Assembly: GCF_030013595.1 (NCBI RefSeq)
Contig: NZ_CP122768.1
Source: Escherichia coli
GTDB taxonomy: Bacteria > Pseudomonadota > Gammaproteobacteria > Enterobacterales > Enterobacteriaceae
DNA length: 64,000 bases
Strand: one strand, 5' to 3'
The first letter of the stretch is position 1. Each line of letters begins with the position of its first letter. Made by a program: the position numbers and the translations under genes. The notes under the pieces are model-generated. The model worked only from the letters and a program-made list of their open reading frames with translations. It had not been told where the DNA came from and searched no databases. This document shows, piece by piece, positions 9,826-13,415 of the stretch.

Positions 9826-9963
9826 GGTGACAGCGATGATGACGTTTAACCTGCGTGAACAACAAAAAAGACTACAGGCGCGAATGGATGAGTTACGGGC
9901 AGAGATTGCATTTGCTCAGAATGAACCGCCCCGGGTTTCCTGGAGAGTGTTTTATCTGTGAAC

Positions 9964-10854
9964 TCAGGCTGCCAGATCATCGTTTCCGATGGAAGCATAA
10001 TAAGCTTTTTCTGCTTCTGCCGGAGGAGTATGGCCCAGCCTTCCCAGCAATCGTCGATTGTTATACCAGTCCACCCACGTTAGTGTGGCCAGTTCCACTT
10101 CTGCACGGTTTTTCCAGCTCTTACGGTGTATTACCTCCGCTTTGTAAAGACCATTGATGCTCTCAGCCATCGCGTTGTCATACGAGTCGCCTGTACTCCC
10201 TGTTGATGCCAGTAATCCGGCTTCTTTTAGTCGCTCCGTATAGGCCAGTGACACATACTGAGAGCCTTTATCGCTGTGATGGATGGTGCCAGACGGACGA
10301 CGGGCCCACAACGCCTGCTCCAGCGCATCCAGCACGAATGTCGTTTCCATAGACGATGAGACCCGCCACCCCACGATGTATCCGGCAAACACATCAATGA
10401 TAAACGCCACATAGACGAAGCCCTGCCATGTGCTGACGTAAGTAAAATCAGCCACCCACAGCTGGTCAGGTCGTTCTGCCACGAACTGACGGTTTACGCG
10501 GTCGCCTGCGGCAACGGCTTTCCGGCTGACGGTAGTGCGGACCTTTTTACCCCGGAGAACACCGGCAAGTCCCATAACTGCCATGAGACGTGCCACAGTG
10601 CATCTGGCCACTCTGATACCTTCCCGTAACAACTGACGCCAGACTTTACGCACACCGTATACCTGGTGATTTTCATCGTATACGCGCTGTATCTCTTTCT
10701 TCAGCCAGTCATCGTGCTGCGCACGGGCACTGCGTTTATCCGGATGATGTCGCTGTTGCTGACAATGGTAATACGTTGACGGGGCAATATGCAGTTCGCT
10801 ACATACCGGTCCGACCCCGTACTGCTCACGCAGCTTATCCAGCAGTGGCATCAT
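9964..10854 (-). CDS. IS3-family transposase OrfB (DDE catalytic domain)
   Basis: 296-aa product; 4-nt overlap with orfA at an A6 run, consistent with the programmed -1 frameshift typical of IS3 elements. Confidence 0.85.
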
Positions 10855-11177
10855 TTTTTCCAGAGGCGGTCGAACTCCGCCTTCGCAAAATAAGCGGAAG
10901 CCTGGCGAAGGATATCGTTACTGCGGCGCAGTTCACGATTTTCACGTTCCAGCTCTTTCAGACGCTGACGTTCAGCGCTGGTGAGCCCACCATCACCGCC
11001 CCCGGTATCCCGCTCATGCTGGCGAACCCAGACACGCAGAGTCTCCGGCGTACAGCCAATCTTTGGGGCAATGGAACAAATTGCCGCCCACTGTGAGTCA
11101 TATTCATCCTGACTTTCCAGAACCATACGAATCGCCCGCTGACGGACTTCGGGGGAAAAACGAGTATTTTTAGTCAT
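10851..11177 (-). CDS. IS3-family transposase OrfA (HTH plus leucine zipper)
   Basis: 108-aa product [60 protein letters not shown].. Confidence 0.85.
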
Positions 11178-12023
11178 CCTGTTTACCTCTTTCTCAGGGA
11201 GTTTAGTCTCCAGGATTTCCGGGGCGGTTCAGAAGGGCGAAAAGCCATGGCCTTATCGTTCCTGCCTGATGCGTGAAGGTCGCGGATATTGCGAAAAACA
11301 CGGTAAATACCATACGCATATACTGGTGTGGAGCGATCGTAATGGCGAGGACAGAGAAAAAATTTCATGCTGCCCTGACTGCTTGATCGCTGAGGCCAAC
11401 GATTTGACCATGGAATTGTCGTCCATCAAGGCGGAAGAGCTGACTGATAACGCCGGAATTGCCCTGCGTTTTCGGGACTGCGAGTTTGATAATTATCTGG
11501 AGGTTAATCCTGACGCAGCCAGAAATCTTGCAGCCTGTCGCCGCTATGCGGAGAACTGGCCAGATATGCTGGAGAACGGCACCAGTCTTGTTATGACTGG
11601 CAGTTGCGGTACCGGGAAAAATCATCTGGCGGTATCAATGGCAAAACACATCATCCGTAACTATCTGGCCAGTGTGGAGATCACCGACGTGATGCGTCTT
11701 ACCCGTGCTGTGAAAAACTGCTGGCGGAATGACAGCGAAAAAACAGCGGATGAAGTTATTGAGCATTATGCGTCAATGGATTTGCTGATCATCGACGAAG
11801 TTGGTGTTCAGTTTGGCAGCGCGGCTGAAATGGCTATTTTGCAGGAAATTATCAATGCCCGGTACGAAAGTATTCTGCCCACCATCCTGATTAGCAACCT
11901 TTCACCGGATGAGTTGTGGGCGTTCATCAGCCCCCGCATTGCCGACAGGATCACAGACGGGGGGCGCAACTGGTTGTCGTTCAACTGGCCCAGCTACCGT
12001 TCTCGTATCAGAGGTGTGGCTGC

Positions 12024-13415
12024 ATGACAATACCAGTCTGGCGTAACGATGACCTGGAAGGCGCTGTTATTGGCGCGTTCTTTCTGCGTGGGGCAGATCC
12101 TGAAGTGATGGATATTCTGGCCACATTGCCGGCGGACGTTTTTTCTGTACGAGCGTATCGGGATATCTACACAGGTATCTGCAGACAGGCCCGTGTTTCA
12201 GGTGTGATTGACCCTGTGCTGCTGTGTAATGAGATGCCGGAACTTGCCCCGGTGATTACTGATACCGGGCGCAAAACCTGGGTGAAGTCGTCACTGGAGC
12301 ACTATGTTGCAGCGTTGCGGCGCAATGCCGCATTGCGCGATGCAGAAAAAACACTGAATGAGGCGTTACAGAAATTACGTGATGCGCATACCTGTGAAGC
12401 AGCTGAAGATGCTCTGAAGGATGCGCAGAACATGATGGCCTCATTGTCGACGGGGAAGGGTATTATTCAGCCGGTACATATTGATGATGTGCTTCCGGAA
12501 GTGGTTGAACGTGTTGAATGCCGGAATCAGGGGCTGGAGAAATCCAGGACGCTGATGACCGGTATTGATGAACTGGACGCAAAAACAGGCGGTATGGAAC
12601 CCGGCGACCTGGTATTTATTGCGGCTCGTCCTTCGATGGGTAAAACCGAACTGGCGCTGGATATCATCGACAAGGTGACTGAGCAGGGGCATGGTGTTCT
12701 TCTGTTCACAATGGAAATGGCGAACATCCAGATTGGTGAGCGCATGGTATCTGCGGCTGGAGGAATGCCGGTATCACGCCTGAAATCTGTCACTCACTTT
12801 GAAGACGAAGACTGGGCACGTTTCTCACAAGGAGTGGGGCGGATGACCGGGCGCAATATCTGGATGGTGGACCAGGCGAACCTGACCATTGACGAGATAT
12901 ACGCAACAACGAAACACCACCTGATTAAACATCCGGAAACGGCGCTGGTGGTGGTTGATTATCTCGGGCTGATAAAAACCCGGAGCACGGGGCGTCATGA
13001 CCTTGCCGTGGGTGAAATCTCAAAGGGGCTTAAAGGCCTGGCAAAATCCGGCGGATTACCGGTGGTTGCGTTGAGTCAGCTCTCCCGCGGTGTGGAGTCC
13101 AGGCCCAATAAACGCCCCATGAACTCAGACCTGAAAAATTCCGGAGAAATAGAGGCGGATGCAGACATCATTCTGATGCTTTACAGGGATGAAGTGTACA
13201 ACCCGGATACGCAGGCCAGGGGCATCGCAGAAATCAATATCACGAAACAACGTAACGGTTCTCTGGGAACGATTTACCGGCGTTTTTATAACGGACATTT
13301 TCTGCCTGTGGATCAGGAAAGCGCACAGATTCTTTCTACCCCAATGCAGCAGCCCCAGCCGCGCAGATACAGCAACAAACGAACTGACAGCAGTAAGATG
13401 GAGCGTTTCTTTTGA
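12024..13415 (+). CDS. Replicative DNA helicase (DnaB-like)
   Basis: Walker A ARPSMGKTELAL, DnaB-type C-terminal domain; start overlaps the loader stop. Confidence 0.8.
   Translation: MTIPVWRNDDLEGAVIGAFFLRGADPEVMDILATLPADVFSVRAYRDIYTGICRQARVSGVIDPVLLCNEMPELAPVITDTGRKTWVKSSLEHYVAALRRNAALRDAEKTLNEALQKLRDAHTCEAAEDALKDAQNMMASLSTGKGIIQPVHIDDVLPEVVERVECRNQGLEKSRTLMTGIDELDAKTGGMEPGDLVFIAARPSMGKTELALDIIDKVTEQGHGVLLFTMEMANIQIGERMVSAAGGMPVSRLKSVTHFEDEDWARFSQGVGRMTGRNIWMVDQANLTIDEIYATTKHHLIKHPETALVVVDYLGLIKTRSTGRHDLAVGEISKGLKGLAKSGGLPVVALSQLSRGVESRPNKRPMNSDLKNSGEIEADADIILMLYRDEVYNPDTQARGIAEINITKQRNGSLGTIYRRFYNGHFLPVDQESAQILSTPMQQPQPRRYSNKRTDSSKMERFF

Follow-up and report, generated by a model that had tools for sequence, protein, structure and literature searches.

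In O157:H7 Escherichia coli, copies of the insertion sequence (IS) IS629 are concentrated in prophages, which hold 62% of them (PMC3271280). Several O157 prophage genes are interrupted by insertion sequences, including nu1 in Sakai Sp4 and, by IS629, the roi, lysozyme and methylase genes of Stx2a phages (PMC2669165, PMC4587872, PMC3271280). A related element, IS1203v, is called similar to IS629 and both are handled jointly in the excision literature (bioRxiv 10.1101/2023.06.07.543989). Among helicase loaders, residues 8-11 and 31-44 of E. coli DnaC contact DnaB (PMC4705694), and most of the helicase binding of Bacillus subtilis DnaI resides in its N-terminal zinc-binding domain (PMC2673437). 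Here, we describe a complete IS629/IS1203-type element within the DnaC-like helicase loader gene of a prophage in a 64,000-nucleotide stretch of E. coli contig NZ_CP122768.1 (RefSeq assembly GCF_030013595.1), referred to below as the window. The arrangement is very probably explained by a simple and recent insertional knockout of the loader in a phiP27-like prophage at the 3' end of ssrA. Events of this kind are ordinary and have been described repeatedly for IS629 in Stx and other lambdoid prophages (PMC4587872, PMC2669165, PMC3271280). The element, the target family and the type of event are already known, and only the insertion site is new relative to the collections searched.

The inserted element and its component parts were located as follows.

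9922-11231, minus strand: complete IS629/IS1203-type IS (IS3 family), exactly 1310 bp, with the transposase antisense to the loader gene
9922-9946, unstranded: IRR, the terminal inverted repeat at the orfB end of the IS, matching the other end at 13/13 tip positions and at 22 of the first 25
11207-11231, unstranded: IRL, the terminal inverted repeat at the orfA end of the IS, paired with IRR
9919-9921, unstranded: left copy of the target-site duplication GAA, abutting the IS end
11232-11234, unstranded: right copy of the target-site duplication GAA, abutting the IS end
10851-11177, minus strand: IS orfA, 108 amino acids, an open reading frame (ORF) with a family match
9964-10854, minus strand: IS orfB, 296 amino acids, the DDE transposase part, overlapping orfA at the A6 run 10854-10859
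10780-10896, minus strand: full-length ALIL frameshift-stimulating pseudoknot (Rfam RF01497), a covariance-family match

The termini of the element read TGAACCGCCCCGG...CCGGGGCGGTTCA (5'-TG...CA-3'), the right end being the reverse complement of the same 13 bases, although over their whole length the inverted repeats are imperfect. Its length lies inside the span of about 1.2-1.5 kb of the IS3 family, and the direct repeat GAA on both sides fits the 3-4 bp duplication of the group. orfA passes into orfB in the -1 frame, with the slippery A6 run and the downstream pseudoknot all present. The orfB product scored 316.9 bits against the NCBIfam model transpos_IS3 (NF033516; cut-off 160), and the ALIL pseudoknot scored 119.2 bits in Rfam (gathering threshold 50; E 1.9e-31), covering model positions 1-117 of 117. 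An earlier, sequence-only reading of this DNA had proposed an IS629-like element of the IS3 family, 1310 bp long, with terminal inverted repeats and a 3-bp gaa duplication, and each of these features was recovered at the base level.

All 1310 bp are 100% identical to copies in UMNF18, a porcine E. coli, and in the O139:H1 strain W13-16, which RefSeq labels 'IS3-like element IS1203 family'. Furthermore, a 100%-identical copy on plasmid CP024975.1 was deposited under the name IS629, and the name used here is taken from these deposited and RefSeq labels of identical copies. The O157:H7 copies are 98.3-98.7% identical to the element, and a sampled Shigella dysenteriae plasmid copy is 96.3% identical. 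Plasmid records with the family number 3009 for Escherichia, 162 for Shigella and 119 for Salmonella. The previous remark that this IS type is common in Shigella and O157-lineage E. coli stands for the family. The variant in the window is identical to copies from porcine enterotoxigenic (ETEC) and Shiga toxin-producing (STEC) E. coli and points to a pig-associated E. coli as its background. The window holds a single copy of the IS629/IS1203 element, which is presumably active.

The insertion divides the loader gene into two fragments.

9836-9921, plus strand: 5' fragment of the loader gene, codons 1-28 plus two nucleotides, preceded by a Shine-Dalgarno sequence GAGGT (duplex -6.9 kcal/mol)
11235-12027, plus strand: 3' fragment of the loader gene, from the last base of codon 29 to codon 292 and the stop, carrying a CxxH...CxxC motif and the whole AAA+ domain

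When the IS and one GAA are deleted in silico and 9836-9921 is joined to 11235-12027, an 879-nt ORF of 292 amino acids without an internal stop is restored, as the sequence-only reading had claimed when it stated that the flanks join in frame. The break point lies after codon 28 plus two nucleotides, that is, within codon 29, close to the 28 codons given previously. From the native start, translation now reads 28 of the gene's own residues followed by 13 IS-derived residues to a stop at 9959-9961, giving a product of 41 amino acids. The longest remnant ORF begins at ATG 11269 (Met41 of the restored protein) and has 252 codons, without a Shine-Dalgarno sequence. Two routes to expression of this remnant were considered and rejected. 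An outward or hybrid promoter was discarded because no sigma-70-like site was found on either strand between 9600 and 11600, and none that was promoter-like at the IS end. A fusion start inside the IS was discarded because no ATG, GTG or TTG occurs between the in-frame stop at 11140 and position 11269. A full-length loader cannot be made from the interrupted gene.

The restored protein matches PHROG 50 'DnaC-like helicase loader' (phrog_50) with an E-value of 9.2e-89 over residues 13-290, in agreement with the loader named as the target at the outset. It also matches the NCBIfam DnaC equivalog model (NF005931; E 7e-38); its 130.6 bits are far below the cut-off of 357, which indicates a homologue of the host DnaC and not an orthologue. 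The Pfam matches are to IstB_IS21 (7.9e-15) and Bac_DnaA (4.8e-06), both AAA+, with a Walker A motif GSCGTGKN at residue 151 and a Walker B motif LLIIDE at residue 212. The best match to a solved structure is E. coli DnaC (PDB 6QEL), over loader residues 88-289 (E 1.4e-29). Amino acid identity is 96.6% to the phiP27 loader across residues 1-292 and 96.2% to those of several Stx2a/Stx2d phages. The 87-residue N-terminus is conserved and comprises a helix, a KPW motif and the CxxH...CxxC motif, and is presumed by analogy with characterised loaders to be the helicase-binding domain. Residues 48-78 (window about 11290-11385), on the N-terminal side of the AAA+ domain, hold the conserved CxxH...CxxC, and Cys39 is not conserved; the motif recalls the zinc-binding helicase-interaction domain of DnaI, whereas E. 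coli DnaC has no such motif. The genes around the loader are a replication initiator upstream and a DnaB-family helicase immediately downstream, in the same rightward block as a Q-family antiterminator.

8914-9825, plus strand: intact O-like replication initiator with a helix-turn-helix (phrog_270, E 2.5e-79)
12024-13415, plus strand: intact phage DnaB-like replicative helicase (TIGR00665, 312.5 bits; phrog_19), the start of which overlaps the loader stop (ATGA)
13669-14052, plus strand: Q-family antiterminator of the rightward block, located beyond the IS and identified from the annotation of the same module in strain ETEC4085

Taken together, these similarities suggest that the protein is a phage loader of a paralogue-like kind, distinct from dnaC.

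In the proposed mechanism, an active IS629/IS1203-type element would have jumped into codon 29 of the loader gene and duplicated GAA. The insertion would separate the conserved N-terminal helix of the presumed helicase-binding domain from the rest of the protein and leave a 252-codon remnant without a ribosome-binding site. In the absence of the loader, the phage DnaB-like helicase would not be delivered to the phage origin, and autonomous replication after induction would fail. In addition, the IS puts 1.3 kb of untranslated antisense sequence ahead of the helicase and Q genes, downstream of the early promoter region, and may thereby reduce their expression; such polarity is plausible. Loss of loader function is well supported, and a replication-defective prophage is a reasonable inference.

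Some observations weigh against this explanation. The phiP27 record starts its loader gene, L18, at the equivalent internal ATG (759 nt, 252 amino acids), and activity of this short form would place the IS in a leader region. Residue 88 is a further in-frame ATG, with a distant GAGG (-5.6 kcal/mol), from which a fragment consisting of the AAA+ domain only could be made. Polarity is unsupported by the terminator search, in which 3 terminator-like hits were found in the IS against 1.8 expected in shuffled sequence; on the plus strand, the candidates inside the IS amount to a pair of weak stems of 5 bp, no more than shuffling would give. Finally, Sakai prophages with fragmented replication and packaging genes were amplified and packaged via other prophages (PMC2669165). 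Helper prophages can thus replicate defective ones, so the term 'replication-defective' may not hold in the cell and 'cryptic' should be read with care.

The first of these points leads to the proposal that the loader naturally starts at ATG 11269, that the IS sits in an untranslated spacer or small upstream ORF, and that the loader is still made. The remnant does retain the CxxH...CxxC motif and the complete AAA+ domain, as this proposal needs. However, in phiP27 itself the 40 codons upstream of the annotated start are open, nearly identical to those here (96.6%) and preceded by GAGG. In alignments of the N-terminus with homologues at 88%, 82%, 57%, 57%, 46% and 40% identity, the N-terminal helix and the KPW motif are kept down to 57% identity. 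The internal Met is replaced by Glu in PhiR49_2, Ser in AsXd-1 and Gln in PPyecE_EH1910; these genes cannot start there, and yet they have the helix and KPW. The long form is annotated in all of those homologue records and in RefSeq E. coli prophages. Furthermore, the ratio of nonsynonymous to synonymous polymorphism (pN/pS) across codons 1-40 is 0.13-0.54 (small counts), below 1 like the remainder of the gene. The anti-Shine-Dalgarno duplex of ATG 9836 (-6.9 kcal/mol) is close to that of the helicase gene (-7.1), whereas that of ATG 11269 (-1.5) lies within a background with a mean of -2.7. Even with a start at 11269, the IS would cut the gene off from the upstream promoter. A natural start at this position is accordingly very improbable, and the short phiP27-type start was rejected: some homologues lack its Met but retain the N-terminal helix, and a Shine-Dalgarno sequence precedes the upstream ATG alone. 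Homologous loaders starting at 11269 were what the sequence-only reading had said would speak against it; one exists nominally in the phiP27 record, and it is rejected here as an under-called start. The L18 start in that reference record is probably 40 codons too short. In phiP27 (NC_003356.1, 3001-3879), the late-called start leaves an unexplained gap of 130 nt behind L17.

The insertional knockout is further characterised by its empty site. A query of 1000 nt across the in-silico repaired junction was compared with 5426 complete E. coli genomes, of which 281 contain the uninterrupted target sequence GCATTTGCTCAGAAGGGCGAAAAGCC, with a best identity of 99.9%. These matches fall under genes annotated as 'helix-turn-helix domain-containing protein' and 'ATP-binding protein' (879 nt, WP_001695597.1), and some complete genomes have up to three copies of the loader region. 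The most useful comparator is the porcine strain ETEC4085, which has the same prophage between ypjA and ssrA with an intact loader and a single GAA. Its alignment to the window is 99.84% identical over positions 1-9921 and 99.68% over 11229-19302, and the IS is the only large difference there. The restored initiator-loader-helicase-Q module (3826 nt) is 1 nt off that of ETEC4085 and 100.0% identical to those of ETEC1732 and ETEC1734. Strain 025542-1, with its prophage at the yecE/DUF72 site, was rejected as the nearest intact comparator, being a mosaic with another integrase and head module, and ETEC4085 was used instead.

The occupied site was not found in any of the 5426 complete E. coli genomes, the exact left junction was absent from 100,044 species-representative genomes, and the exact 252-residue remnant product is not on record in public assemblies. 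A junction without a second example could arise if an assembly error had placed the IS by repeat collapse or misjoin, and copies of this family are a common cause of misjoins, being numerous in E. coli (matching places per complete genome: median 4, maximum 53). A misjoin would not produce an exact 3-bp target duplication, exact IS termini and collinear flanks, and this origin is barely credible. The 3-bp duplication is clean and is strong evidence that transposition took place. The insertion is very recent, given that near-identical modules with an empty site and 100%-identical copies of the IS exist elsewhere.

The porcine strain rl0044 (NZ_CP121356.1) was examined as a possible carrier of the same junction and rejected, since its loader is intact and a different IS lies in the next gene. 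Its prophage is of the lineage described here and occupies the corresponding locus, the two modules being 99.9% identical. Within its DnaB-like helicase gene lies an IS629-type element of 1310 bp (positions 3936-5245 of the rl0044 locus), in the same orientation as here. This copy is 98.7% identical to the IS in the window and is flanked by a 4-bp duplication, TTAC, and its removal restores the helicase ORF. The other target gene, the TTAC duplication and the other IS variant mark an independent event. Among the 60 best-matching modules in complete genomes, rl0044 is the only other one split by an IS.

Two independent IS629-type insertions in the same orientation and in one rightward block, both among about ten near-identical prophages, raise the idea that the insertion was selected and is not neutral. 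An IS between the early promoter and Q would then act as a polar lock, so that after SOS induction neither lethal replication in situ nor the Q-dependent expression of late genes could proceed, a form of domestication that is potentially reversible. An integrase frameshift older than the IS, described below, is compatible with this idea, and, the duplication being 3 bp and in frame, the original gene could be regained without change by precise excision through transposase and the excision enhancer IEE. However, two events are too few to establish selection, an IS is present in just one module among the 60 best matches from complete genomes, IS629 favours prophage DNA anyway (PMC3271280), and the IS has no terminator signal above chance. 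Selection for such a lock is improbable.

The simple knockout is best viewed against the state of the whole prophage, which is bounded by a 27-bp direct repeat (292-318 and 43396-43422) and is about 43.1 kb long.

451-1622, minus strand: tyrosine integrase pseudogene with a 1-bp deletion in an A7 tract at about 669
292-318, unstranded: attachment-site core, the distal copy of the 27-bp direct repeat
43396-43422, unstranded: attachment-site core within the 3' end of ssrA (the tmRNA gene, 43396-43758, minus strand)

With the change from A7 to A6, the catalytic C-terminus of the integrase (RHTFAT...HYGSY) is no longer in frame. ETEC4085 has an identical integrase sequence, labelled 'frameshifted' by RefSeq, and an intact form of 390 amino acids is present in MFDS1022581. 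The integrase frameshift noted in the sequence-only reading was thus confirmed and found to be common to ETEC4085. Given that the loader of ETEC4085 is intact, the frameshift is older than the IS insertion. The IS would represent a second and later decay step in a prophage already locked in by the integrase frameshift. Being in a homopolymer, the frameshift might be undone by slippage, and an error of sequencing common to both genomes is conceivable in principle.

A prophage in this condition may nevertheless be less inert than it appears. It has been considered that the gene is broken with little consequence, because a co-resident prophage with the same loader, or the host DnaB/DnaC, could rescue replication in trans, or because transposase and IEE could excise the IS precisely, in which case the prophage would not be truly cryptic. 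Some genomes carry up to three loader regions, and the defective O157 Sakai prophages mentioned above were still amplified and packaged with helper prophages (PMC2669165). Precise excision of IS1203v/IS629 reactivated stx2 and bla reporters at a frequency that depends on transposase and IEE (bioRxiv 10.1101/2023.06.07.543989), and a lacZ case is described in O121 (PMC9397093). The IS in the window is intact, and the late genes (terminase, portal, capsid, tape measure, J and fibres) have ORFs of the expected lengths. However, a 64-kb view of the genome can show neither a helper prophage nor iee, and the integrase frameshift would still block excision of the prophage. Substitution by host DnaC, which the sequence-only reading had allowed for, seems unlikely because host DnaC has no similarity to loader residues 1-87 and the phage has its own DnaB-like helicase, which makes it doubtful that DnaC could load the phage helicase. 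A co-resident prophage, or precise loss of the IS, is no less likely a source of rescue than host DnaC. Overall, a break with little consequence is rather unlikely.

Several further features of the prophage were recorded. Within the initiator gene, three direct-repeat pairs lie at 9268-9421 (CCGTCARAATCTGAA twice, TTTGACCCTTCAGA twice and AAACATGATCCGCAAG twice); they are iteron-like and probably mark the phage origin. Relatives differ by 45-60 bp at these repeats, and DNA matches break into two pieces there. Between Q and the lysis genes (14242-17517), the cargo includes an OmpC-like porin (14242-15339, minus strand), a DNA methyltransferase (16136-17182) and tRNA-Gly(TCC) (17443-17517). No stx genes, including stx2e, were found downstream of Q in the window prophage, despite its phiP27-type replication module. 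The stretch 19302-20160 is the sole part of the early/lysis half that does not align to ETEC4085 (858 bp against 236 bp there); its small ORFs include 19670-19903, with a lipobox-like LLVGC, possibly a spanin or a lipoprotein moron. The head/tail half (20160-42984) is 88-97% identical to ETEC4085, and its head module is unlike that of 025542-1. The near-identical early region and the divergent head/tail half are typical of lambdoid mosaicism. In the chromosomal flank (ffh-pheA-tyrA), the annotation of matching genomes places an IS4-family transposase gene at about 62468-63805 on the minus strand, and the best match of the flank among complete E. coli genomes is 99.0% identical, so that the host is E. 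coli/Shigella-like but its strain lies outside that collection.

The significance of the insertion lies mostly in annotation, as it represents an ordinary route of resident-prophage decay. The ORFs 9836-9961 and 11269-12027 belong under one label as an IS-disrupted pseudogene, and the prophage should be scored as doubly damaged, with an integrase frameshift and loader::IS. In induction or transduction work, it would be expected not to amplify on its own. Loader::IS is also a strain-specific marker, which links the strain to a prophage cluster from porcine ETEC.

In comparison with known systems, the element has no structural difference from IS629/IS1203 (IS1203v), sharing its length, TG...CA ends, 3-bp duplication, -1 orfA/orfB arrangement, A-run and ALIL pseudoknot. 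Like the IS insertions in O157 prophages, it belongs to an IS family that disrupts single lambdoid genes and drives diversification and decay within a phage type; the target here, the helicase loader of a phiP27-type module, was not found described in that literature. The prophage of rl0044 shares the lineage, locus, gene block, IS family and orientation, and differs in the target gene, the duplication and the IS variant. The loader shares with E. coli DnaC (6QEL) an AAA+ core that carries the Walker A and B motifs and aligns with DnaC residues 46-242, whereas loader residues 1-87 have no detectable similarity to the DnaC N-terminal domain. B. subtilis DnaI and the loader both have an N-terminal Cys/His motif before the AAA+ domain (PMC2673437), zinc binding being putative for the loader. 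Finally, the Stx2e-converting phage phiP27 has the same order of helix-turn-helix initiator, loader, DnaB-like helicase, small ORF and Q. The loader in the window is interrupted, whereas the phiP27 record annotates the last 252 codons only. The likeness between the two lies in the replication module and not in the toxin cargo, as Q is followed here by a porin and a methyltransferase.

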